64,000 bases of DNA, from contig OZ241889.1 of assembly GCA_965203355.1 (NCBI GenBank), positions 2,560,001 to 2,624,000 of the forward strand. Reading direction: 5' to 3'. The position numbers were made by a program, and so were the translations under genes. The stretch comes from Candidatus Latescibacterota bacterium (GTDB lineage Bacteria; Latescibacterota; UBA2968; UBA8231). Position 1 is the first letter of the stretch. Each line of letters opens with the position of its first letter. Positions 8,502 to 64,000 of the stretch are shown here, piece after piece. Below the pieces are notes generated by a model. It did not search any database. It was not told where the DNA came from and saw nothing but the letters and a program-made list of their open reading frames with translations.

Positions 8502-8535
8502 CAGAGAGGAGAATCTTTATGTTGAAACAATCTGA
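8392..8535 (+). pseudogene. Duplicated 5' stub of apgM running into the insert
   Basis: VRYVVLVPDGAADYPLDELDGQTPLEVAATPCMDRLARE then ENLYVETI*; overlaps the next start codon. Confidence 0.85.
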
Positions 8536-9781
8536 TGTGTTACACTCATGCTGTGATGGGGATAACTGGATTAGAGAAGCTCTGTGTAAAACGGAACCAT
8601 ATATATACGAAGAAGTAGAAAAGTCTTTGGCAACCAAACTATTAGATAAAATTTATCTTGATGCTGATGCTATCGAAAAACCCCTCCACCTAGCGGCAGC
8701 TTTTGACTTGCTAGTAGCAGCAGAGTACTACCGCACTGTCGCTTCTGAAGGATGGGGGCATTGCCTCGATAAAGGTTGTTCGCTTCTATTCTATCCGTAT
8801 GTCAATGCCTGTCCAAGATGTTTACTCCAAGGCCAATTTGTGTTTCACAAGGCCAATAAACCGAAGTCTGGTTCGATTGGTTTAGCAACCTCAAAACTTT
8901 TAGCTCTTTTTTTGCAAAAACTGCTTCATAAGAAGGGGTCTCCCATTGAGGTCGTGAAGGGAAATGAGCCAGTAGATTTGGTTTTTAGAGATAACTCATC
9001 GGGTTCCGAAGTGGTCTTCTTTGCAGAGATTAAAGCAGCACCTCTTTTCACGTTACCATTGGCTATTAAAGACCAGAGATCGGCTACAGCAGTGGAGCAT
9101 TCAATGGAAACTACTCAGCATGAGGAGATATATTGTACAGGACTTTACGATTCTGAAATAGGCATATATTTACCATACAAAAAGGATGAGGTTACTTGGG
9201 GCGGACAGATTTTCCCATTAGGAAAAAAGGTTGATCAAGAAGATGAGGCATGGGCATACAATGGATTAATTAATCTTTTAGACTCAGATCCTTCATTTAT
9301 AGAGGGTTATTTTGAATTCTGGAAAGAGGCATTTGAATGCTATGGTAGCCGCCTTAAGAAAAACCCATACTGGTTTACTAATGCCTGTGGAGGTCCTGAT
9401 CCAAGACCTATTACTTGGCCAAAAAGAAAAGGAACAGGTTATGAGACTATTTCTGACGGCAAAACAAGTGTGGGTATGGATAGGACAGATGATCTTAAAA
9501 AAGCTATCTATCAAGTATTGAAGATTGGGACTGCTGGTAAGCCCACGTGTACCTTTAAGTATAAAGTGGGCATTGTGACGAACATTCCCGCAGTTAGGCA
9601 TCATGGAGAGTACATAGAGCCAGTTAAAGATATAATTTGGGCAAGGGACGAATCAGCATCTGCTCAATACGTTGGTGATTTAGCTAAAGATAAAGGGCTG
9701 TTTAATCTCTTTGATGGTATAGTTTCTTTGACTGAGGTTTCAGCTCGTGATGAATGGATTAAGGCTACATTCACTTTTTGA
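8519..9781 (+). CDS. Putative type II restriction endonuclease (PD-(D/E)xK-like, Cys cluster)
   Basis: AT-rich; EPVDLVF...FAEIKAA motif, CPRC; directly upstream of a C5 methylase; SD GAGGAG. Confidence 0.65.
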   Translation: MLKQSDVLHSCCDGDNWIREALCKTEPYIYEEVEKSLATKLLDKIYLDADAIEKPLHLAAAFDLLVAAEYYRTVASEGWGHCLDKGCSLLFYPYVNACPRCLLQGQFVFHKANKPKSGSIGLATSKLLALFLQKLLHKKGSPIEVVKGNEPVDLVFRDNSSGSEVVFFAEIKAAPLFTLPLAIKDQRSATAVEHSMETTQHEEIYCTGLYDSEIGIYLPYKKDEVTWGGQIFPLGKKVDQEDEAWAYNGLINLLDSDPSFIEGYFEFWKEAFECYGSRLKKNPYWFTNACGGPDPRPITWPKRKGTGYETISDGKTSVGMDRTDDLKKAIYQVLKIGTAGKPTCTFKYKVGIVTNIPAVRHHGEYIEPVKDIIWARDESASAQYVGDLAKDKGLFNLFDGIVSLTEVSARDEWIKATFTF

Positions 9782-9797
9782 TATGAGGAGGTATATT

Positions 9798-10922
9798 GTG
9801 GTGGAAGTTTTTAATCATCAACCCCGTAAGGTTGGAATGGAAGTCCAACGTAGGATCAATGCACTAGGTATTGGGCAGAAAATGCAAGATTTGCCAGAGG
9901 AACTATGGCATAAAAGCTTCCGTTACTATGTCAAAGAAGATCCTAGTCGCAAAGGGGGACCAAATCTGAGAATGATAAGACTTGATCCAGACCAGCCTTC
10001 TCTAACAGTAACAGGTTATATTTTCAATAAGTTTGTTCATCCATATGAGGACCGATTTATTACGCCGAGAGAAGCTGCGAGATTACAAGGATTTCCTGAT
10101 GACCTAGAATTTAAAGGGGTGCTCACTAGTGTTCAGAGTCAAGTCGGTGATGCAGTCCCAATCGAACTCGGTAGATCCATCTTTGAGTCACTAATGATTC
10201 TTTTAAAGAAACATTGGCCGAAGAAGAAGATTTTCAAAACTCTTAGTTTGTTTAGTGGAGCAGGTGGATTAGATATAGCCTCAGAGAGAATAAAATTTAA
10301 AGATAATAGTCATTTTGAGCTAGTCGCTTGTATTGAAATTGAAGAGGATCGCTGCGATACACTAAAAGGATATTTTAAAGATAAAGTAAAAGTATTTAAC
10401 GTAGATATTTCAGAAGTAACTACTGACACTTTACTTAGCACATGCAAAGTGTCAAAAGATGACATTTGGGTAATTTATGGCGGTCCTCCTTGCCAGTCTT
10501 TTAGCCAAGCAGGAAAACAAAAAGGAACCGACGATTCAAGAGGAATATTGGTTTTTGAATTTATACGTTTTCTAAAGGAAATAAATCCTCCTTACTTTGT
10601 CATGGAAAATGTGGCAAATATAAATGGTATTGAGAAGGGGTTTTTACTTAAAAAAATAGTACAGAAAATGAACAAAATAGGTTATAATGTCGAGAGTGGT
10701 ATACTAAATTCCGTAGATTATGGTAACGCACAGAAGAGAAGGAGATTTATCTGTTTGGGTTCAAAAAAAGGATGGCCAATAGCTAAATTGCCTTTACCGA
10801 CGCACTGTGAACAGGAAAATTTGCTTGGGTTACCACTTTTCAAAACAGTAGGTGAAGCGTTAGAGGGATTACCTTCACCAGAGTGCGAGAAAATTGCCCT
10901 AGAAAATGGGAAGGATCTCTAA
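9798..10922 (+). CDS. Circularly permuted DNA (cytosine-5) methyltransferase
   Basis: Motifs IX/X (RFITPREAARLQGFPD, QVGDAVP) precede motifs I (SLFSGAGGLD), IV (GGPPCQSFS), VI (MENV) and VIII (QKRRRFI); GAGGAGG before GTG. Confidence 0.9.
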   Translation: MVEVFNHQPRKVGMEVQRRINALGIGQKMQDLPEELWHKSFRYYVKEDPSRKGGPNLRMIRLDPDQPSLTVTGYIFNKFVHPYEDRFITPREAARLQGFPDDLEFKGVLTSVQSQVGDAVPIELGRSIFESLMILLKKHWPKKKIFKTLSLFSGAGGLDIASERIKFKDNSHFELVACIEIEEDRCDTLKGYFKDKVKVFNVDISEVTTDTLLSTCKVSKDDIWVIYGGPPCQSFSQAGKQKGTDDSRGILVFEFIRFLKEINPPYFVMENVANINGIEKGFLLKKIVQKMNKIGYNVESGILNSVDYGNAQKRRRFICLGSKKGWPIAKLPLPTHCEQENLLGLPLFKTVGEALEGLPSPECEKIALENGKDL

Positions 10923-11033
10923 CGTGCGCTACGTGGTGTTGGTGCCCGACGGGGCGGCCGACTATCCGCTCGACGAACTGGACGGGCAGACGCCGTTGGA
11001 GGCGGCCGCTACGCCCTGCATGGATCGCTTGGC
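10912..11033 (+). repeat. 122-bp direct repeat, copy 2
   Basis: Matches 8380-8501; supplies the methylase stop codon and the apgM start. Confidence 0.95.
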
Positions 11034-18503: not shown

Positions 18504-20939
18504 ATGATATTGAACAGAGGCTACAAAGTTGTGCTGGCGGTGTGCATTGTCGGTTGGGGCGGCGCCGAGCCGACGGCCGCTAGCTACATCCCTGACATGC
18601 CTTATTTTCACCAGCAGAGCAACCGCATTAACCCGGCCGGCTCCTGCCAGAACACCTGCATCGCTATCGTGCTCAAGTACTACGGAGCCGACGACATTAC
18701 GCCCGACCTGATCTCGGCCAAATGGGGCACGTACGTCGCTCAGACCACGGGTGGCCTCGAAAGGGTTTTTAACGAGGAAGCGGCGCGGCGCGGCCTGAGC
18801 GTCCGCGATCAAGCGACCGAAACCGGACTGCTGCGGGAATTGCACGCGCTGTTGGACGCTGGCCGGCCCGTCATCGTCCACGGCGGCTTTTCCGCTGTCG
18901 GGCACCTAATGGTGCTGGTCGGGTACGACGAGCGTTTTTACTACGCAATGGATCCGGCGGGCCAGTGGACCGAGCGGCTGAACCGGGGCTTTACCCATAC
19001 CAACGATCCGCACATAGGCCGCTACACGCGCTATGGCCGCGCCGCCGTAGAAAACGCCATCGTTTCTCGGGGCTTTATCCGCATGCACCAGATTTATTTT
19101 GCGCCGGGGGCCTTGGCCGCCGAGTGGGAGGGCCACTTTGCCGATTCGGTCGCAGTGGGTGCGGAGGTGGAGTTTGCCGGTGGCATCCGCGTCCGCGGTG
19201 GGTCTGCTGCTGGGGCGCGTCGGCGCGTGTCTGCGGATCTAAGTGCGTTGGGCGGTCCGCCGGACCAAGTGCTGGCCGAAGCCTCGCCGGGGTTTTACCC
19301 TTTGGCCGAGACCCTAGTGGCCGCTGGGCGTGCCGGGCGCAAGTCCGTCGTCTTCCGCGTCCGCCAAGGCGAAGCCTCCATTGAGGTCAAGCGGACGCTA
19401 GTACTGATGCCAGCCGAAAATCAAGTGGTCTTCGATGGCGGAATGGGGGCTGGTTGGCACGTAGGCTTTACCGCTGGTGCGGAGCTTGCGGTGTCAGCCG
19501 GGGGCCCGCTAACTGTGGCGGCGCGCAGCTTCACGGTGGAATGGCGACCTGCCGCGCCCGTAGAACCAGTCGGCTATCGCGCGCTGCGCTTTGCCTTTCA
19601 CCCCGGGGATGCAGTGGCCGGTGTGAACGGGGCGTTTTCCGTGCAACTCAACGAGGATCCGCGCAAGATCGAACCGCTAATCAATGGGTTTTTCCGCGGC
19701 ATTGACATGGCGCGGGCCGATTGGCAGACGGTGGAAGTGCCGCTGTGGGCTTTCGCGCCGCTGGAAGAACCGATTGAGTCCATTCGCTTCTTCGGCAATC
19801 TGCGCGGCGCGTTCTATCTCGACAGCATAGCACTAGTCAGCGCCTTGTTCCCGCGGCCGCGCCTGATGGCCGATTGGCAGAGCGCGTTGCTGGACTCGGC
19901 CATGGCTGGGGCCGAGTTGATCCTACACGAGCGTCTGCGCGTAACCAGCCCGGTGCCCGATGGTGCTGTGCCCGAAGTTTTAGCCGACCTCAGTGCGCTA
20001 GGGGGTGGCTCGGCGGTGGCGCTAGCGCGGATCGGCGCGGGCCGGTACCAACTAACGGGAACGCTTGCTGCCGATGTGCCTAACGGCCTGAAGTCCGTGC
20101 AAATTCACATCCGCCAGCAGACGCCAGACGGGCCGCTAGAGACGACCCTGATAAAGGAGTTGGTGCTGCTGCCGATGGCGGACCAAGTCATTTTTGCCGA
20201 CCAGTACGGTGAGAACTGGACCGAGGGATTTACCTCTAATGTCGAGGTACATGAGCAGGTCTTTGCCGACCTTGGGGCGCAGAGGCTGGCGGCCGAGGCG
20301 TTTACCCTCGAATACAAACCGCTGACTCCTGTGGCGCCGGTAGGGTACCGCGCCTTGCGACTGGCCTTCCATCCCGGCGATGCCAAAGGGGGGCCGCAGC
20401 CTACATTCAATGTGATGGTTAATAAGGATGCGCCGTCGCTGGTCGCGCTGTTTGAAGGGGCTGGCTTGGATTTGGCGCGGAAAGAATGGCAGGCGATAGA
20501 GATTCCGCTGGCGCGTTTCAATCGGCTCGACGGGCCGATTGAATCCATCCGCCTGTTCGGCAACTTGCGCGGCGCGTTCTACCTAGCCGATGTGCGCTTG
20601 GTCGCCGCTAAGACTTCCGCGCCCACGGCGGTGTCGCACCGGCAGCAAGCAATAGGGCCGGAGGCGTTCGCGCTGGCGCAGAACTACCCTAATCCATTTA
20701 ACAGTACCACGGCGATTGGTTTTGCCCTGCCGCAAGCCGGGGCGGTCCAGCTCGCAATTTTTAACGCACTCGGCCAGCGGGTCGCTGTCTTAGCCGAGGG
20801 AACCTATCCGGCCGGCTCCTACACGCTGCGCTGGGATGGAGTAAGAGACGGCGACCGCGCTTTGGCCGCGGGCTTGTATTTCTACCGATTGCAAACCCCT
20901 TGGGGAGGGCAAACGCGCAAACTGCTTTTGCTCAAGTAA
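18504..20939 (+). CDS. Secreted C39-like cysteine peptidase with two repeated modules and a C-terminal sorting domain
   Basis: Signal peptide; Q...[20 protein letters not shown] triad; duplicated [31 protein letters not shown]; QNYPNPFN...KLLLLK. Confidence 0.8.
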
Positions 20940-22772: not shown

Positions 22773-22850
22773 TTGTTTGGTAATGAGGCGCGACCGCAGT
22801 AACACACCGGGCCACCATGGGTGTTTAAGTAGCACACCGCCAGGGGATAC

Positions 22851-23324
22851 ATGGACGTAGATACACTGTACCGTCGCTACGGACCGATGGTCATGCGTCG
22901 TTGTCGGCAGCTTCTGCGCGACGAAGACCAAGCACTCGACGCCACGCAAGATGTCTTTGTGCGGCTCTTGACGCGGCGCGACCGCCTGCAGGACGACGCG
23001 CCCTCTAGCCTGCTCTATCGCATGGCCACCAATCTCTGCCTCAATCGCATCCGCGATACCCGGCGGCGGAAGACCACGGCCGACTCGACGCTGTTGGAGC
23101 AGATAGCCTGCTGGCAGGACGCCGAGGGCCGGATAGATGCGCGTGCTGCGCTGGCCAAGCTCTTTGGCCAACAGCTCGAATCAACGCGCACGATGGCTGT
23201 CTTATACTACGTGGACGGCATGACCTTGGCCGAGGTAGCCCAGGAAGTGGGCATGTCCGTGTCTGGCGTACGCAAGCGGCTGCTCGGCCTGCGCGCATCG
23301 CTGCAAGAGATGGAGAAGCCATGA
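22851..23324 (+). CDS. ECF RNA polymerase sigma factor
   Basis: ALDATQDVF (region 2), LLYRMATNLCLNRIR, DGMTLAEVAQEVGMSVSGVRKRL (region 4). Confidence 0.92.
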   Translation: MDVDTLYRRYGPMVMRRCRQLLRDEDQALDATQDVFVRLLTRRDRLQDDAPSSLLYRMATNLCLNRIRDTRRRKTTADSTLLEQIACWQDAEGRIDARAALAKLFGQQLESTRTMAVLYYVDGMTLAEVAQEVGMSVSGVRKRLLGLRASLQEMEKP

Positions 23325-24082
23325 ACCAGCAAGACAAGCGCCCCATAAGCGACTACCAGCTAGAGCGCTATCTGCTGCGCGAGGGAACGGACGACGAGTT
23401 GGCGGATTTGGAACGCCGGTTGGCGGACGATCCAGCGCTCGCCCAGCGGCTAGCGGCCCTAGCGCACTCCAACGAGGAATTGCATCGGCGCTACCCACCC
23501 GAGTGGATGCGCGGCCAGATCGAGCTAAAACTCAAGCGGGCGCCGGGTCGGCCCGTCCAGCGAGCTTGGAGTGGGTATCGCCTTTGGGCCGTGCCAGCCG
23601 TGGCCCTGATCCTGGCGGTGGTGGCGGTGCCCACTCTCCTCGATCGAGAAGCCCCGGAAACCCCGGCGACGCGCAGCAAGGGCCGCGAACAGGAGCCGCG
23701 CTTGTTGGTTTTCCGCCAACGGGCCAGCGGGGTGGAACGCCTACAGGACGAAGCATTGGCCCACAGTGGGGACGTGGTACAGCTCGCCTACCGCTCGGGT
23801 GGCTTGCCGTACGGGGCGATCCTATCGGTCGATGGGCGCGGTACTGTAACTCAGCACCTGCCAGCGACTGGCGTGGTGGCCGTGCCGCTGGCGGCGCAAG
23901 ACACCCTCGATGTTGCCTACGAACTGGACGACGCGCCCCGGTGGGAGCGGTTTTATTTGCTGGCGGCGGATCGTCGATTTGGCCTAGCGGCGTTTAAGGC
24001 CAAACTCGCGGCTGGCGATGTGGCGTTGGCCGATGATGTCCGTCTGTTCCGATTTACCGTAAAAAAACCGAGTCAGCCTTAA
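23321..24082 (+). CDS. Putative membrane anti-sigma factor (ActD/DUF4384-like periplasmic domain)
   Basis: ATGA overlap with sigma; N-terminal LERYLL anti-sigma-like helices, one TM segment, then GDVVQLAY...ILSVDGRG...AYELDDAPRWERF. Confidence 0.75.
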   Translation: MNQQDKRPISDYQLERYLLREGTDDELADLERRLADDPALAQRLAALAHSNEELHRRYPPEWMRGQIELKLKRAPGRPVQRAWSGYRLWAVPAVALILAVVAVPTLLDREAPETPATRSKGREQEPRLLVFRQRASGVERLQDEALAHSGDVVQLAYRSGGLPYGAILSVDGRGTVTQHLPATGVVAVPLAAQDTLDVAYELDDAPRWERFYLLAADRRFGLAAFKAKLAAGDVALADDVRLFRFTVKKPSQP

Positions 24083-24096
24083 CCCGGCGAGGAGTT

Positions 24097-26154
24097 GTGC
24101 CCATGTCTTTGGTGCGGGTCCTGCTAGTCGTTATCGCGGCGGGTCTGTCCCAGCCGGTGGCGGCGGAAGTGCGGCGGTTGATCTTGGCGGCGGGCGCTAA
24201 CAACGGTGGGGTGGATCGCGAGTTGCTGCGCTACGCGGTGTCGGACGCGGAACAATTCGTCGAGGTGTTGCAGGAGATGGGGGGACTGGACCCCGCCGAT
24301 GTGTTGCTGTTGCGCGATCCCGACTTGGCGGCCTTTGAGCGCGGGCTGGCCGATCTGGGTCGGCGGGTACAGGCGGCCAGCCGACGGGGCGACCGCTTGG
24401 AGGTGCTGCTGTACTACTCGGGCCACGCCGACGAAGAGGGCCTGCTGTTGGCCGGCGATCACCTCGGGTATCAGCAATTACTCGACTCGCTGAAGACGGC
24501 CAACGCTGCGGTCCGCATCGCCGTCCTCGATGCCTGCAACTCTGGCAGCATAACCCGCATCAAGGGAGGCAAGCCCAAGCCGCCCTTTTTGGTTGATGAA
24601 TCCTTTGACATGCGGGGCTACGCCTTCCTCACGTCGAGTTCAGCCGACGAAGCAGCGCAAGAGTCGGACCTGATCGAAGCGTCCTTTTTTACGCACTATC
24701 TAATTTCCGGGCTGCGCGGCGCCGCCGACGTTACTGGCGATGGCCGGGTGACGCTACACGAGGCGTACCAGTTCGCATTCGACGAGACGCGGGCGCGGAC
24801 GCTTGGCACTGTGGGCGGGACTCAGCACCCAGCCTATGAGGGCCAGATGCGCGGCACGGGCGGCGTGGTGATGACCGAGGTGCGCCGCAACGCGGCCGGC
24901 CTGTTGCTAGACGAGGCACTCGCCGGTCGAGTGTCCATCCACAATGCCCAACAGCGCCTCGTCGCCGAACTAAACAAATCCCCTGGGCGCGCGGTCGAGT
25001 TGGGATTGGTGCCCGGGGCTTATACCCTGTTTTTGGAAACGTGGGACGAGGACTGGCGCTGGGCCGAATTGGTTTTGACCGAGGGCACTTTCGCCGAGGT
25101 GCGCACCAGTGATTTTCGCGCCTTGACCCCAGAGGAAACGAAGCTGCGCGGCGGTTCGGGGCGGCGCATTACCTTGGGACGCCAGATCGAGGTTGCCACC
25201 CACGAGGGATATACGCTGTCGCTGGGGCTGTTGACCAATACGCAGGACGAAGCGTTTCGCGGCATTCAGTTCGCTTGGCTGGTCAACCAAGCGCGCGAGC
25301 GGACCGGCCATCAGATTGGCGGGTTGGGCAACTTGGCACTCAAAGAGATCGATGGCTTGCAGGTATCCGTCGTCGGCGTCAACTGGGCGATGGGGCCATT
25401 GCAGGGCGGACAGGCGGGGCTGCTCAACATTGCTTCGCAAGTGCGCGGCTGGCAGGTGGCGCAAACGACCAACATCGTCGGCAAGATTCGCGGTTGGCAA
25501 CTCGCTGGAGTTACCAATTTTGTCGGCGAGGTCAAGGGCGGTCAGGTCGGATTATTAAACGTGGCGAGCAAGGTCAAGGGGTGGCAGATTGGCGTGGTCA
25601 ACCTTTCCGGCCACATCGAAGGCGGCCTGCCCATCGGATTGATCAACTACTCGCACAGCGGGCTTTTCAATCTCAGCACTTGGCGCGACGAAGTCGGCTT
25701 TACCCTATTCACCATTGCCTCGGGTAGCCGCTCGTTTTACACCGCTTTTACCATGGGCTTTACCGCCGAGGACGACCAGCGGCGCTGGGCGCTCGGCCTC
25801 GGCGGTGGGGTGCAGAAGCGTTGGCAGCGGTTTTTCCTCGGCCTTGATATGCACGCCTACCGGATCAGCCGCGCCCTCAACGACGATTACAGTGCGGGCA
25901 TTGGGTTTTGGCCGCCGGCCGTGAACTTTGACCTCGATCGCTTGGCTAAAGACAACTATCTGGCGCGGGTCAAACTTGAGACCGGGTGTTCTTTGCACGG
26001 CCATCTGGCGCTGTTTGGCGGCGTCTCCCTCAACCAATTGTGGACCGACGGTCACCTGCGGCTGATTGAGTCGAAAAGCCGCTACGAGCAGGAGTGGGAG
26101 GCCGGGCTTTTTGCGTGGCCGGGGTTTTTCTTTGGCCTGCGCTACGGGCGCTAG
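24097..26154 (+). CDS. Exported caspase-family (C14) protease with Gly/Gln/Asn repeats and a probable C-terminal beta-barrel
   Basis: Signal peptide; LRYAVSDA, YYSGHAD (His), LDACNSG (Cys), AQES; GxQxGxxN repeats; terminal WPGFFFGLRY strand. Confidence 0.85.
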   Translation: MPMSLVRVLLVVIAAGLSQPVAAEVRRLILAAGANNGGVDRELLRYAVSDAEQFVEVLQEMGGLDPADVLLLRDPDLAAFERGLADLGRRVQAASRRGDRLEVLLYYSGHADEEGLLLAGDHLGYQQLLDSLKTANAAVRIAVLDACNSGSITRIKGGKPKPPFLVDESFDMRGYAFLTSSSADEAAQESDLIEASFFTHYLISGLRGAADVTGDGRVTLHEAYQFAFDETRARTLGTVGGTQHPAYEGQMRGTGGVVMTEVRRNAAGLLLDEALAGRVSIHNAQQRLVAELNKSPGRAVELGLVPGAYTLFLETWDEDWRWAELVLTEGTFAEVRTSDFRALTPEETKLRGGSGRRITLGRQIEVATHEGYTLSLGLLTNTQDEAFRGIQFAWLVNQARERTGHQIGGLGNLALKEIDGLQVSVVGVNWAMGPLQGGQAGLLNIASQVRGWQVAQTTNIVGKIRGWQLAGVTNFVGEVKGGQVGLLNVASKVKGWQIGVVNLSGHIEGGLPIGLINYSHSGLFNLSTWRDEVGFTLFTIASGSRSFYTAFTMGFTAEDDQRRWALGLGGGVQKRWQRFFLGLDMHAYRISRALNDDYSAGIGFWPPAVNFDLDRLAKDNYLARVKLETGCSLHGHLALFGGVSLNQLWTDGHLRLIESKSRYEQEWEAGLFAWPGFFFGLRYGR

Positions 26155-26167
26155 ACGGAGCGGTAGG

Positions 26168-26392
26168 ATGGCGAGAAAGTGGATGCTCGGCATGGCGTTG
26201 ATCGGTTGCGGGATGAGCGATCCCTACGGGCCAGCCGACCTGCCCGAAGCCCCGTGGCAGCGCACCGAGGAGCAGCGGCTCGAAGCGATTGAGGAAAGTT
26301 GTCGTGGCCTGCCTTGGGAGCGCGGATGGCTCTGTCCGCACGGCGCGGCCGAGGCCGACACGACGAAAGCGCAAGGTGGAAAGGAGTTTTAG
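26168..26392 (+). CDS. Small putative lipoprotein
   Basis: MARKWMLGMALIGC lipobox-like; 14 nt after the caspase stop. Confidence 0.5.
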   Translation: MARKWMLGMALIGCGMSDPYGPADLPEAPWQRTEEQRLEAIEESCRGLPWERGWLCPHGAAEADTTKAQGGKEF

Positions 26393-26393
26393 G

Positions 26394-26685
26394 ATGGAAA
26401 ACCCCATATTACAGGCCGTCGATGCGCAACGCCTACTTGATACGACCAAGAAGCTGATTGCGGTGCCAGTGTCGGGTTGAAGGGACGCGTCGCTGGGTAG
26501 CGGCTGGATCAGAGCCGGACGCACGCCGAGAAATAGAAGACCGGCTCGCCGACTGGAACATGCCCGGCGCCGCCTTTGCGATAGAGCACAACAGCCCGCT
26601 AGTGAGCGCGTTCCAGTCGGCGCACGAGCAGGTGACGGGGGCCGCGCTGCCCATGTCTTTATGGCTGCCGGGATTGAGGCCCTAA
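26394..26685 (+). pseudogene. Internally deleted M20 peptidase remnant
   Basis: MENPILQAVDAQRLLDTTKKLIAVP joined out of frame to CRVEGTRRW...AFAIEHNSPLVSAFQSAHEQVTG; strong SD AAGGAG. Confidence 0.55.
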
Positions 26686-26760
26686 CGCACGGACCTTGCG
26701 CCACAGGGGCGCAGGTGTCGGGGTAGCGAAGGTGTATGCGCTGACGCCGCCGGCGTTTTG

Positions 26761-28041
26761 CTAAGTACCTTCAATGGCGCGTGCGGCGGCCGTGCCTTGC
26801 TCCTCGTCGACGAAGTAGAGCAAGGCTCCGCCCGCCACAAAGAGGATGACGATTGACAAGATGCCCAAGCGCGGGCTGCCGGTCAGCACCCCAATCCAGC
26901 CGACCAGCACCGGGCCGATGACCGCGGCGAACTTGCCCAGCATGTTGTAAAAGCCGAAAAATTCCGCGGCGCGATCGCGGGGAATGAGTCTTGAGTAGAG
27001 CGAGCGGCTCAGGGATTGGACCCCGCCTTGGACTAGGCCGATGGTGACGGCCAAGGCGTAAAATTCCCAGACGGCATCTAAAAAGTAGCCCCAGATCGTC
27101 GCCGCAATATAGACAGCCAAGCCGATGAAAATCCCCTTGCGCGTGCCGATCCGCTCGCCGAGCCAGCCAAAGGCCATGGCCGCGGGGAAGCCCACGAACT
27201 GGGTAATACCTAAAGCGAGGAGCAAGTCGTTGTCGGCAAGGCCCAGCGATAAGCCGTAGTCGATGGCCATGCGGATGATGGTATCGACGCCGTCGATGTA
27301 CAGCCAGTAGCTGATGAGAAAAACAAAGGTCGTGCGCAACTGCCGGATGTCGCGGCCGGTCGCGATGAGCCGTCGATAGCCGGCCAAGACCGCGTTCCAG
27401 CCGCGATGATCGCGCACGGGCGGCGATTCTTCGACCCACAAAAAGAGCGGCAATGAAAAGCCAGCCCACCAGATGGCAACTAGCAAAAAGGACGTGCGCA
27501 CGGCCTCGCTGGCATCGGCCAACCCAAAGGGCGCGGGATGGAGGACCATCACCACATTGAGCGCAAACAGCAAGCCGCCGCCGAGATAGCCGAGACTGTA
27601 TCCGAGCGCCGAGACCGAGTCGGACTTGTCGCGTCCGGCCACCTCCACGAGCAGCGCGTCGTAAAAGGTGTTGCTCCCTGAAAAGCCGATGGCGGCCAAG
27701 ACATAGACCACCACCGCCAACTCCCACGCGCCTTGGCCCACCAGGTAGAGGCACCCGGTGGCGAGGACGCCCAAGAAGGCGAAGGCAAACAGGAACTTGC
27801 GCCGGGTGCCGCCTTGGTCGGCAATAGCCCCTAAGAGCGGTGCTAGCAACACGACGATCAGGCTGCTGAGCGAGTTGGCCAACCCCAGTTGGAAGGTACT
27901 CTCGGTGACGTCGTGGCCGGTGCTCCAGTAGGATTTAAAAAACACCGGGAAGAAGGCGGCGATGACCGTGGTGGCAAAGGCCGAATTGGCCCAGTCGTAC
28001 CAGGCCCAAGCGATGATTGGTTTTTTGGCGTTGAGCGGCAT
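26761..28041 (-). CDS. MFS transporter (UMF1/Atg22-like)
   Basis: WAWYDWANSAFAT, APLLGAIAD, GYSLGYLGG, QSLSRSLYSRLIP. Confidence 0.9.
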   Translation of the reverse strand: MPLNAKKPIIAWAWYDWANSAFATTVIAAFFPVFFKSYWSTGHDVTESTFQLGLANSLSSLIVVLLAPLLGAIADQGGTRRKFLFAFAFLGVLATGCLYLVGQGAWELAVVVYVLAAIGFSGSNTFYDALLVEVAGRDKSDSVSALGYSLGYLGGGLLFALNVVMVLHPAPFGLADASEAVRTSFLLVAIWWAGFSLPLFLWVEESPPVRDHRGWNAVLAGYRRLIATGRDIRQLRTTFVFLISYWLYIDGVDTIIRMAIDYGLSLGLADNDLLLALGITQFVGFPAAMAFGWLGERIGTRKGIFIGLAVYIAATIWGYFLDAVWEFYALAVTIGLVQGGVQSLSRSLYSRLIPRDRAAEFFGFYNMLGKFAAVIGPVLVGWIGVLTGSPRLGILSIVILFVAGGALLYFVDEEQGTAAARAIEGT

Positions 28042-30183: not shown

Positions 30184-31125
30184 ATGCCCCAACGCAAACT
30201 GCCCATCGGCATTCAGACCTTCCGCGAGCTCCGTGAAGAGAACTACTACTACGTCGATAAGACCGCCTACATCGGCCGGCTGCTCGACGAGGGGAAGCAC
30301 TATTTCCTGTCGCGCCCGCGGCGTTTCGGCAAGAGCCTGTTCTTGGATACGTGCAAGGAACTGTTCGAGGGCAATGAGTCGCTCTTCGCGGGACTTTACA
30401 TCCACGACCGCTGGGATTGGTCGGTTTGCCGTCCCGTCCTGCGGCTCAGCCTGTACCAGCGCCGCGTTAGTTCCCTGGAGCTCGGTGAGATGTTCGGCAG
30501 CGACGAACTGCTATCGACCTTCGACATCGATCATATCGCGACCGAGGCCCTGCTGTTCCAGACCGGCTACCTGACGATAACAGACGAGGAGGACGTTGGC
30601 GGCAGAGTCCTCTATCGCCTCGGCTATCCCAACCGGGAGGTGCGACAGAGTCTCAACGAGAGCCTGCTGCGCTACTTGGTGCAGGATTCGACGCGACAGA
30701 TGGCCAACAGCGTACGGCTCTACCGGCTGTTGGAGGCCCGCGACTTCGCCGGGCTGGAGATGCTATTCCACGCCTTTTTCGCCAGCATTCCCTATGCGTG
30801 GTACACCAACAATGACATGGCGCATTACGAGGGGTACTATGCGAGTGTATTTTACTCGTATTTCGCCGCGTTGGGGCTGGATGTTCGGGTGGAGGATAGT
30901 ACCAGTCAAGGACGGCTGGATATGGCGGTTTTATTCGACAGCACCGTCTATTTGTTCGAGTTCAAGGTGGTCGAGCTGTCGTCGGCGGGGGCGGCGTTGG
31001 GGCCGTTGAAGGAGCGGGGGTATGCGGATAAGTATCGGGGGCTGGGGCAACCTATTTACTTGATCGGCGTGGAGTTTAGCCGGGATACGCGCAATGTGGC
31101 CGGGTTTGGGGTGGAGCCAGCGTGA
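30184..31125 (+). pseudogene. AAA-ATPase-like + PD-(D/E)xK nuclease protein with an in-frame internal deletion
   Basis: [24 protein letters not shown]; no Walker B; [20 protein letters not shown]...FEFK. Confidence 0.7.
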
Positions 31126-31141
31126 AGCGCGGCCGGTGGTT

Positions 31142-31369
31142 ATGCTAAACGAGCTACGCAAAATCCGCTACGCCCGCTTCCGCTTGGAGATGACCGCGGT
31201 GAGCCGATTGAAGTTGCCCCCTTACAAGGGTTCCACCTTTAGGGGGGCCTTTGGCCATACCTTCAAACGGCTGGTTTGCGTCAAGCGCGACCTGGACTGT
31301 TCCACCTGTCTGATCAGCGATCGATGCGTGTATTACTTCAGAATGTTGACCCGATTTGTAGGGGATTGA
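31142..31369 (+). pseudogene. cas6: N-terminal fragment of a Cas6-like RAMP endoribonuclease
   Basis: LPPYKGSTFRGAFG...VC...CSTC...CVY; stops after about 75 aa. Confidence 0.7.
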
Positions 31370-31507
31370 AACTCCTTATTCGCGGCAAATCCTGGAAAGG
31401 ACAGTTGGCCCAAAGCCAACAAGCTCACTCTGAGCCTTCTACATAGGGCTATTTAGCCCTACCGCACCTAAACCTGAGCAGTTGATTCTATGAGCACGTC
31501 TCGCCAA

Positions 31508-62706: not shown

Positions 62707-62782
62707 GGATTAAGTCGGCTCAACCATTGTTTTGTCTTCTAAAACATACGTGAGTTATATTTATATGAGGAGGATTCAGGTG

Positions 62783-63073
62783 ATGTCGAAATTGTCGGCG
62801 GGGCTAAAGAATAAGCAAGCCTATCTCATGTATTGGGCGCTAGTTTGCGCCCTCTGCGTAGGAGTGGGGGCTTGCTCGACAGATACCTTGATGGCCCCCA
62901 AGAGCAATGCACAGAGCGCCAGAGAATTGGAGGACTCAGGCGATGTCGAAATCATCGGCGAGATTGAAGAAGTCGAGGAGGACTCAGGCGATGTCGAAAT
63001 CATCGGCGAGATTGAAGAAGTCGAGGAGAAATTAGGCGATGCACAAATCACCGGAGAAATCGAGGAGGACTGA
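62783..63073 (+). CDS. Short lipoprotein with an acidic tandem-repeat tail
   Basis: GAGGAGG SD; MSKLSAGLKNKQAYLMYWALVCALCVGVGAC lipobox; EDSGDVEIIGEIEEV repeats. Confidence 0.6.
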   Translation: MSKLSAGLKNKQAYLMYWALVCALCVGVGACSTDTLMAPKSNAQSARELEDSGDVEIIGEIEEVEEDSGDVEIIGEIEEVEEKLGDAQITGEIEED

Positions 63074-63105
63074 GGCGATGTCGAAATCATCGGCGAGATT
63101 GAAGA
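62930..63105 (+). repeat. Tandem ~48-bp repeats (about four copies, third degenerate and shorter)
   Basis: Unit GAGGACTCAGGCGATGTCGAAATCATCGGCGAGATTGAAGAA(GTCGAG). Confidence 0.9.
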
Positions 63106-64000
63106 ATAAGCAAGCCTATCTCATGTATTGGGTGCTAGTTTGTGCCCTCTGCGTAGGAGTGGGGGCTTGCTCGGATAGTGCTCTGATACAGCCAGAAGCC
63201 AGCGACAGCGGCGCGGCGTCTTTCGTTATCAGCAGCAAGGTCGTCGCTGCGACTTTGTCGCGTGTTGAGGTGGTTATAACGGGCTCAAATATGGATGAGA
63301 TACGTCAGGATCTGACCATAGATGAAGACACGATTACTGGGGTTGTGCAAAACATACCCGCCGGGAACGAACTCCGTTTTACCCTGAATGGGTACGATTC
63401 CTCTGACAACTTAGTCTATAGTGGGTCGGCAATGGCCGATGTGGTTGCCGGAGAGCAGGTAACGGTCAGAATTACAATGAAAAAGCAGGAAGACAAGATA
63501 TATTGGTTCAATGCCGGTAGCGACAGTATTGGTTTTTATCGCGCTAACCTCGACGGCTCCAAAGAGGAAAAAATCTTAGGCTTCACGTGCTGCTTTTCTT
63601 TAGGAGGACTGGTTATAGACGTGAGCAGCCGCAAGATGTATTGGACTTACCGCTCCCCCGGCAGGCCCGACCGCATTCTACGTAACAACCTCGATGGCTC
63701 ACAGATCGAAAACCTTGTTATCGAGCTCTCTGATCCATGGGGACTGGCTTTAGATGTGGGCGGTGGCAAGATGTATTGGGTAGATGATGGCACGAACAAG
63801 ATTCAACGTGCCAACCTCCTTGATGGCTCACAAGTCGAAGACCTCGTCAGCGTCGTCCATCATCCAAGGAGACTGGCTTTAGATGTGGGCGGTGGCAAGA
63901 TGTATTGGACAGAGCATAGCTCGCGCAAGATTCAACGCGCCAACCTTGATGGCTCACAAGTCGAAGACCTCGTCAGCGGTCTGAGTCGGCCAGAGGGACT
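63078..64000 (+). CDS. Lipoprotein with LDL-receptor class B (YWTD) repeats, 3' end outside window; absent from the ORF track
   Basis: Manual translation open to window end: MSKSSARLKNKQAYLMYWVLVCALCVGVGAC...LALDVGGGKMYW..KIQRANLDGSQVEDLV repeated. Confidence 0.88.
   Translation, partial: MSKSSARLKNKQAYLMYWVLVCALCVGVGACSDSALIQPEASDSGAASFVISSKVVAATLSRVEVVITGSNMDEIRQDLTIDEDTITGVVQNIPAGNELRFTLNGYDSSDNLVYSGSAMADVVAGEQVTVRITMKKQEDKIYWFNAGSDSIGFYRANLDGSKEEKILGFTCCFSLGGLVIDVSSRKMYWTYRSPGRPDRILRNNLDGSQIENLVIELSDPWGLALDVGGGKMYWVDDGTNKIQRANLLDGSQVEDLVSVVHHPRRLALDVGGGKMYWTEHSSRKIQRANLDGSQVEDLVSGLSRPEG

Follow-up and report, generated by a model that had tools for sequence, protein, structure and literature searches.

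In a 64,000-nt stretch of genomic DNA from a Candidatus Latescibacterota bacterium (contig OZ241889.1, positions 2,560,001 to 2,624,000; the window, in whose own numbering all positions are given below), we analysed a locus of four plus-strand open reading frames (ORFs) at 22851..26392. The first three genes, which encode a sigma factor of the extracytoplasmic function (ECF) type, an anti-sigma factor with a single transmembrane (TM) helix and a caspase-barrel protein, form a real unit. From sequence comparison, structural models and analogy with known systems we propose, with a probability of roughly 60%, that the caspase is a site-1 protease which would cut the anti-sigma factor after Lys120, the remnant then being cut by RseP. 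The genes are tightly packed, as a preliminary description of the locus had stated. The sigma gene (22851-23324) and the anti-sigma gene (23321-24082) share 4 bases, the commonest spacing among relatives (46/69), and a gap of 20 bases separates the anti-sigma stop from the caspase ATG at 24103. The operon of four genes claimed in that description was confirmed for these three, while the lipoprotein gene that follows is not a member (see below).

Results of a neighbourhood survey, recommended in the preliminary description, showed that the triad recurs as such in other bacteria. The caspase query gave at least 565 relatives among 594 candidate stretches; the best 79 loci were kept and belong, according to their titles, to Latescibacterota, Gemmatimonadota, Fibrobacterota, Myxococcota, Acidobacteriota and Spirochaetota. 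Gene order was counted in the 75 loci with at least 1.6 kb of upstream sequence (4 were too short), and in 68 of these the sigma and anti-sigma genes stood, in that order, ahead of the caspase. The other seven comprised three with an anti-sigma only, one with a sigma and a broken anti-sigma, and three with neither; in 3/5 genomes with an orphan caspase, an anti-sigma was found elsewhere. In the opposite direction, among the best 80 of 566 metagenome loci retrieved with the anti-sigma query, a caspase followed in 66/67 loci with enough sequence and a sigma gene preceded in 71/72. An anti-sigma profile collected 2,296 clusters at 50% identity (E up to 1e-30). Judged by gene order and sequence similarity, the triad is conserved across phyla, with linkage in both directions.

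A host range that extends to monoderms was considered and rejected. Four metagenome-assembled genomes (MAGs) titled Eubacteriales or Bifidobacteriaceae all encode Omp85 above the cut-off, so that no monoderm case is left; a Spirochaetota control MAG holds Omp85 above the cut-off too. The four MAGs (loci L037, L051, L069, and L077) carry several Omp85 proteins, and their labels or bins are doubtful.

The sigma factor (P0001, 157 amino acids, 22851..23324, plus strand) matched Sigma70_r2 (E 5e-15), Sigma70_r4_2 (E 2e-6) and, above cut-off, TIGR02937, which confirms its initial identification as an ECF sigma factor. It is composed of sigma2 and sigma4 only, and a single-TM anti-sigma with a helical N-terminal domain is encoded at +1. 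Upstream of the gene, a pattern conserved in relatives marks a candidate autoregulated ECF promoter (22798..22825, plus strand; −35 GTAACA, 16-base spacer, −10 GTGTT). The consensus GTRACA-N16-GTGT was present upstream of sigma in 33/36 non-redundant loci, and with a 15-base spacer in one more, vs. 4/36 for the best control word pair. The 64-kb window contains a single match, the one at 22798-22825, where 0.04 would be expected by chance, and a scan for a sigma-70 housekeeping promoter detected none. These data suggest that the sigma factor of the locus recognizes this promoter. The same consensus precedes four orphan caspases. In two loci, a second copy lies just after the caspase (L010:8229-8460, L012:8065-8310) with a leader resembling that of the operon itself, and precedes a Gly/Lys/Ser-rich ORF of 45-49 amino acids. 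Three distant paralogous triads of one Myxococcus genome (L220, L221, and L222) have no GTRACA promoter before their sigma genes and are probably parallel channels with other promoters.

The anti-sigma factor (P0002, 253 amino acids, 23321..24082, plus strand) was recognized as an ActD homologue by hydropathy, an AlphaFold2 (AF2) model, a fold match and the NCBI names of its relatives ("ActD-like protein" or "ActD protein"). Hydropathy revealed one hydrophobic segment at residues about 86-106. In the AF2 model (predicted local distance difference test, pLDDT, 85) helices at the N-terminus are followed by an unstructured middle part and a beta-sandwich, so that the protein can be divided into a helical domain (7-73), the TM helix (~86-106), a flexible linker and a beta-sandwich (127-248). 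This agrees with the single TM helix and external domain noted at the outset. Helices 7-70 resemble those of the anti-sigma RslA (3hug_B; Z 6.5, root-mean-square deviation (rmsd) 3.1, 62 residues aligned), a middling score; going by the model, this part of the protein would bind the sigma factor. The identity of the external domain is less distinct. DUF4384 matched weakly in 13 of 63 aligned anti-sigmas (best E 1.5e-4), the window protein itself being without a match; Foldseek with the anti-sigma model returned nothing at E 0.001, and a VIA search found generic immunoglobulin-like sandwiches only (Z up to 8.3). The sandwich carries the invariant acidic residues D151, D171, D203 and E209. The HxxxCxxC zinc motif that defines zinc-binding anti-sigma (ZAS) factors was found in 0/73 anti-sigmas, and zf-HC2 in 22-30% of members among distant anti-sigma relatives.

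The third gene (24103-26154, plus strand) encodes a protein of 683 amino acids whose AF2 model has a pLDDT of 82 and a predicted template modelling score of 0.74. Each feature listed for it in the preliminary description, namely a signal peptide, an intact His-Cys dyad, GxQxGxxN repeats and C-terminal aromatic strands, was recovered. Residues 1-21 (24103..24165) form a predicted Sec signal peptide by hydropathy, a heuristic call and not one by SignalP; the segment is hydrophobic, ends in V-A-A and is signal-peptide-like in the model, and a hydrophobic N-terminus is present in 78/84 caspases. The caspase-fold catalytic domain (residues 22-262; 24166..24888) matched Peptidase_C14 (PF00656) above cut-off with E 1.4e-7, a family that also hit 58/58 aligned members, and its fold was close to that of metacaspase 4 (Z 21.2, rmsd 2.9, 209 aligned), while a sequence search of the PDB with this domain alone returned nothing. 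The dyad, H108 and C145, is kept in 80/80 aligned caspases. Together with D48 and D143 it aligns with metacaspase positions, at weak E-values (0.0045-0.018), and these two Asp residues are conserved in 79/80 and 80/80 caspases. Paired S1 Asp residues bind the basic P1 residue in metacaspases and give Arg/Lys specificity, as stated in the relevant part of PMC6426788; by its sequence, the S1 pocket of the window caspase suits Lys.

Behind the catalytic domain the AF2 secondary structure contains a beta-sandwich (residues about 265-340; 24895..25122), which found no separate match in the fold search. It is followed by an LA_2272/VC2662-like beta-helix (residues 361-517; 25183..25653) built in the model from seven G-x-Q...N repeats, with Z 14.3 to 3p4g; the NCBIfam "surface repeat" family matches these repeats below its cut-off. 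The C-terminus (residues 520-683; 25660..26154) was modelled as an outer-membrane barrel of the OmpA/OprF type, with eight strands at 521-682 and OprF, NspA and OmpA as best matches (4rlc: Z 14.7, rmsd 2.2, 117 aligned). Long loops connect strands 5-6 and 7-8 in the model, and short turns strands 2-3, 4-5 and 6-7. In OmpA-type barrels, both termini lie in the periplasm; since the loop and turn pattern is of this type, the N-terminal domains are predicted to be periplasmic. The model thus points to an exported caspase anchored in the outer membrane, with its catalytic domain in the periplasm. Among 81 caspases longer than 430 amino acids, 48 end in repeats and barrel type A, 25 and 5 in two other barrel-like ends without repeats, and 3 are truncated or frameshifted. 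Type A alone was folded, and OMP_b-brl matched in 4/58 members. Repeat numbers range from 0 to 15 among relatives and the three barrel types are interchangeable; this fits a plain anchor as well as a modular receptor. Four loci (L019, L021, L022, and L025, at about 9200-11000) contain a second caspase-barrel paralogue after an Omp85/DUF4252-type gene.

The anti-sigma factor and the caspase appear to share a candidate cleavage site, R-x-K-G. In the anti-sigma it is R118-x-K120-G121 in the periplasmic linker (23672..23683, plus strand), singled out by its invariance as a candidate site-1 cut after K120. The K-G pair was present in 73/73 caspase-selected loci, including 38/38 below 60% identity, 35 of which also keep R118. 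It was likewise present in 80/80 metagenome loci, which had been found with a C-terminal pattern, and in 150/150 profile hits vs. 25.7 in shuffled linkers, although the profile itself contains the motif and this set is therefore biased. Residues around K-G vary and gap, and the linker is otherwise variable. The same tetrapeptide, R152-x-K154-G155, stands in the loop after the catalytic Cys of the caspase (24556..24567, plus strand) as a candidate self-processing site; R152 and K154 are found in 80/80 caspases and G155 in 78/80, and pLDDT falls below 50 at residues 152-167. A candidate release site, R349-G350 (25147..25152, plus strand), lies in the disordered linker between catalytic module and tether, with R349 in 76/80, G350 in 75/80 and pLDDT below 50 at residues 346-359. 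This position suggests that a cut there could detach the catalytic module from the outer membrane, an effect that would be most important in the 30 forms that lack repeats and have a short tether. All three candidate sites fall in low-confidence, presumably flexible segments of the models, and the three distant Myxococcus triads mentioned above have K-G at all three places.

Further information on the partnership came from Myxococcaceae. In three loci (L043, L072, and L073) genes for a sigma-54 activator and for an epimerase, the latter fused to GNAT in 2/3, stand ahead of those for the anti-sigma, here named "ActD protein" by NCBI, and the caspase; the gene next to actD at these act loci encodes the caspase-barrel protein. 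The sigma gene is absent from them, whereas the anti-sigma and caspase genes stay together and the GTRACA-N16-GTGT promoter is kept before actD. In each of the three genomes, a single close sigma orthologue (55-57% identity) is encoded at another place. It has a promoter and an anti-sigma of its own, and the sigma/anti-sigma pair is followed by a caspase in one genome and by a caspase-less barrel in two. The latter genes (L096:108-869, minus strand; L097:2774-3379) encode a signal peptide and a barrel, with no caspase or repeats, after the cognate sigma and anti-sigma. Mutants in actD are reportedly delayed in the accumulation of CsgA. In M. xanthus the five-gene act operon acts in C-signal feedback, as far as the parts of PMC3824092 and PMC4320627 that deal with it go. 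The window resembles this operon in its ActD homologue and differs in arrangement: actA-actB-actC is not found upstream in the window, where the ECF sigma gene stands instead, while the act loci lack the sigma, give actD its own copy of the promoter and have the cognate sigma elsewhere. The act arrangement was seen in these three loci only, on which the comparison rests.

The sequence of events that we propose is the following. At rest, the anti-sigma factor would hold the sigma factor at the inner membrane, while the caspase, exported and with its barrel in the outer membrane, would be turned with its catalytic domain toward the periplasm and held in zymogen form until a cue arrives. It would then cut after a basic residue followed by Gly: self-cuts at R152-x-K154/G155 would bring about maturation and at R349/G350 release from the tether, and the cut at K120/G121 of the anti-sigma would remove the bulky DUF4384-like domain. 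RseP would then cut the TM stub, and the freed sigma factor would transcribe its own operon and a small envelope-rich regulon from GTRACA-N16-GTGT promoters. All cleavages, as well as the RseP step and the trigger, are put forward as hypothesis only.

We favour this proposal because the linkage holds in both directions; because anti-sigma and caspase remain together, and keep the promoter, where the sigma gene parts from them at the act loci; because the dyad is intact and both S1 Asp residues are conserved; because K-G is invariant amid a variable linker and all three candidate sites lie in presumably flexible segments; and because the three distant Myxococcus triads retain K-G at each place. 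RseP was found above cut-off in 4/5 genomes of relatives, two close ones included. There are also precedents in DdvA/RseP, in Csx29/Csx30 and in the orthocaspase MaOC1, which needs self-processing (PMC5756287). A more specific form of the proposal, which we offer tentatively and consider rather doubtful, is that distance across the periplasm gates the reaction: correct barrel assembly would park the caspase at the outer membrane, too far from its substrate in the inner membrane; if assembly failed, if the envelope collapsed or if the caspase released itself at the conserved Arg/Lys-Gly junction, it would reach the anti-sigma and cut it. It is suggested by the interchangeable barrels, the presence of a release site and the envelope-rich regulon.

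Several observations weigh against cleavage of the anti-sigma by the caspase. K-G stands at a near-fixed distance of 5 residues before the beta-sandwich (121/150) and at 8-73 residues from the membrane, and may therefore serve the sandwich as a structural latch. The middle residue of the motif does not co-vary between anti-sigma and caspase (10/38 identical, 8.1 expected), and an association in the loss of Arg is weak (Fisher p 0.025, 3 non-independent rows). In a mirror-tree analysis the distances of anti-sigma and caspase correlated less well with each other (rho 0.61) than those of either with sigma (0.74). A basic residue followed by Gly behind the catalytic Cys may be a common feature of bacterial caspases in general. 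In two Myxococcaceae, a barrel without a caspase comes after the cognate anti-sigma of the sigma factor, and the Fibrobacter MAG, whose completeness is not established, gave no RseP at the profile cut-off. A complex prediction of caspase residues 22-345 with anti-sigma residues 107-253 scored 0.00 and was counted for neither side.

Part of this evidence would also be explained if the caspase were an output of the system and not its trigger, with R-x-K-G serving as a latch that docks on the anti-sigma's own beta-sandwich and another protease performing site 1. The fixed spacing, the missing co-variation and the caspase-less barrels fit such an arrangement, as do the invariant acidic residues of the sandwich and the promoter that orphan caspases have in common with ordinary members of the regulon. 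It does not explain why 78-80 of 80 caspases have the tetrapeptide again behind their catalytic Cys, why the act loci contain anti-sigma and caspase as a pair in which the sigma is missing, or why the S1 pocket suits Lys, and we consider it an unlikely alternative. A still less probable arrangement is that the periplasmic part of the anti-sigma is a pseudosubstrate whose binding to the caspase inhibits or primes the enzyme, the signal being release of this contact and not productive cleavage. The identity of the motif with the caspase's own loop would be in keeping with it; so would PCi, which the PCaspase preprint (bioRxiv 2023.06.23.546230) describes, in the part on this protein, as both inhibitor and substrate of PCaspase, and the frequent fusion of DUF4384 to proteases. 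However, anti-sigma and caspase are predicted to be anchored in different membranes, and nothing marks the site as uncleavable, Gly following Lys as at the caspase's own sites. Very improbable, finally, is a caspase displayed on the surface like an autotransporter passenger, acting on outside substrates with the signal passing inward by another route: the beta-helix does resemble passenger and two-partner-secretion helices (Z 10-12) and the sub-threshold repeat family bears the name "surface repeat", but the barrel has eight strands and no pore helix, vs. the 12-stranded barrel with a pore helix of classical autotransporters, its loop pattern puts the N-terminus in the periplasm, and the beta-helix is absent in 30 relatives.

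The regulon, like RseP, was examined in genomes of relatives. Two Myxococcaceae contained 10 and 15 promoter sites vs. 2 and 0 in the control, and one Fibrobacter 5 vs. 1. No enrichment was detected in five close Latescibacterota genomes (16 sites vs. 12 in the reversed control) or in two Acidobacteriota genomes (2 vs. 3 and 2 vs. 1). For 30 of the 34 sites of the Myxococcaceae, Fibrobacter and Acidobacteriota scan, the genes behind them were inspected. These genes encode, among others, ExbB/TolQ (2), DUF3450, a DUF2807 lipoprotein, exported hydrolases and cytochromes, CotH kinases (2), an LptE-like lipoprotein and, in three genomes, a 212-amino-acid exported or membrane protein; other sites precede genes for FMN reductases, for a radical SAM protein and for a desaturase, which are not of the envelope type. 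As predicted from these sites, the output is envelope-rich and not purely envelope. In a downstream gene cluster 10/13 members carry GTRACA-N16-GTGT, and its one scanned member is a TonB-dependent receptor. Genes for ExbB/TolQ, DUF3450 and a TonB-dependent receptor have the sigma's promoter in Fibrobacter and Myxococcaceae and are, for this reason, probable outputs of the sigma factor. Within the tests made, the independence from TonB asserted in the preliminary description is borne out on the input side (a FecR domain was found in none of the 63 anti-sigmas and the barrel is eight-stranded), but TonB-related genes are likely on the output side. No TonB-dependent receptor is encoded beside the operon in the window.

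The predicted lipoprotein (P0004, 74 amino acids, 26168..26392, plus strand; lipobox L-I-G-C) had been listed as the fourth component of the operon, and locus comparison led us to reject it. It occurs in 8/79 loci, all from close Latescibacterota-type relatives, and in 8/8 of these it is never adjacent to the caspase but lies 1.5-2.8 kb downstream, separated from it by a GHL10-like gene on the opposite strand and followed by an M20 peptidase gene. Window positions 26155-26770 have lost the GHL10-like gene, and several internal deletions have reduced the M20 peptidase to a remnant (26394..26770, plus strand; an intact 384-amino-acid Peptidase_M20 in relatives), which is not part of the system either. 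A deletion of about 1.6 kb brought the lipoprotein next to the caspase. Contigs of four runs from three studies span the junction, one of which may be the source of the window, and two of them represent strains of about 97% identity whose breakpoints in the M20 peptidase differ. As contigs of several runs and studies cross it, the adjacency is lineage-specific decay and not an assembly error.

The surroundings of the operon were scanned with PADLOC, which covered 32 of the 52 window ORFs (positions 52-43594). There was no match for the four locus proteins or for scanned ORFs from 10.9 to 34.9 kb, and no Cas, SAVED or CHAT component in the locus; matches outside this interval were only helicase-type cross-hits and a type II restriction-modification pair. 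In line with the preliminary description, independence of the operon from CRISPR can be deduced from this lack of CRISPR or defence context near it. The restriction-modification pair lies at 8519-10919, in DNA of low guanine-plus-cytosine content (REase_II E 1e-104, MTase_II E 8e-80). An exported protein of 811 amino acids is encoded at 18504-20939, with Peptidase_C39_2, two similar internal repeats and a C-terminal sorting domain like those of FlgD and the type IX secretion system. At 30184-31400 there is a 313-amino-acid ORF, apparently shortened, which we take to be of AAA-ATPase-like/PD-(D/E)xK type, and after it a short ORF (31094-31369) that presumably resembles the start of a Cas6-type protein. 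The segment 31765-33780 encodes a predicted MurG-like glycosyltransferase of 671 amino acids with a long HEAT-like C-terminal extension, followed by an MraY-like gene, and at 62732-64000 two neighbouring ORFs, both predicted lipoproteins, are almost the same in their N-terminal signal region.

Caspase homologues of bacteria are mostly read as death or defence enzymes, and as a site-1 protease a caspase has so far only been proposed, for the fused CHAT domain of DdvA. If our proposal is correct, a large family of bacterial caspase homologues would be site-1 proteases of an envelope signalling switch. Gating by distance, if true, would mean widespread (2,296 clusters), non-lethal caspase signalling controlled across the periplasm, and would provide a mechanism for two developmental genes of Myxococcus, actD and the fifth act gene; a link between ActD and developmental signalling has been made with no molecular function assigned to the protein, and Myxococcaceae are a genetically tractable host family. 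The open literature yielded no functional study in which a caspase that is a protein of its own, with a barrel as tether, acts on an anti-sigma, which within this limit supports the earlier statement that the triad lacks a functional description. The gene association itself is in print: Asplund-Samuelsson et al. (2012, PMC3501461), in the part of the paper on operons, list sigma-70/metacaspase operons in Myxococcus xanthus DK1622, Anaeromyxobacter, Haliangium, Sorangium, Ralstonia and Fibrobacter. These resemble ours in joining a sigma factor and a caspase homologue in one operon, and share the taxa Myxococcus and Fibrobacter; they differ in that the same part describes them without anti-sigma, barrel, promoter, motif or mechanism and leans to programmed cell death. 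Going by the relevant parts of these and the following sources, the association of sigma factors with metacaspases, the DUF4384 anti-sigmas of ECF25 and the cutting of sigma regulators by caspase-fold proteases are already known.

Among known systems, DdvS/DdvA of M. xanthus is similar in its ECF sigma factor, its single-TM anti-sigma and the periplasmic caspase-fold protease proposed for site 1 in a flexible linker; in the pertinent sections of PMC11506125, DdvA truncated in the linker is an RseP substrate, so that RseP is shown there for site 2. According to the same sections, DdvA carries its own TPR-CHAT domain and a CHCC zinc site and controls the cyclic-oligonucleotide-based antiphage signalling system (CBASS) and CRISPR, whereas in the window the protease would be a C14 protein encoded separately and anchored in the outer membrane, the anti-sigma has no zinc ligands and no TPR-CHAT fusion (253 amino acids with a 120-residue beta-sandwich), and no defence genes adjoin. 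The type III-E Csx29/Csx30/RpoE and III-B SAVED-CHAT/PCaspase/PCc-sigma/PCi modules likewise use a caspase-fold protease that cuts a sigma-associated protein. Csx29 cuts Csx30, one group of whose C-termini is DUF4384, according to the section of bioRxiv 2022.08.17.504292 on these proteins. As far as their published descriptions go, these modules are triggered by CRISPR, unlike the window locus with its lack of Cas, SAVED and CHAT, and the description of PCaspase in bioRxiv 2023.06.23.546230 mentions, in the part on this protein, neither a signal peptide nor the periplasm. ECF25 (Casas-Pastor et al., 2021, PMC7826278) is similar, in the group's entry, in its anti-sigma at +1 with a single TM helix and DUF4384 and in its taxa (Fibrobacteres, Spirochaetes, Deltaproteobacteria, and Gemmatimonadetes); that entry names no caspase, and gives the s1/s2 subgroup promoter as GGAAC/GTC vs. 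GTRACA/GTGT here. TonB-dependent cell-surface signalling of the FecIRA type differs from the window system, which has neither a FecR domain nor a TonB-dependent transducer as a partner. In this type and in RseA/DegS/RseP, a single-TM anti-sigma is cut in two steps, and the envelope is thereby connected with an ECF sigma factor. Compared with the RseA/DegS/RseP pathway, site 1 would here be performed by a cysteine protease hung from the outer membrane and not by a serine protease of the inner membrane. The window system would work like DegS/RseA and DdvA, yet by its components it belongs to neither.

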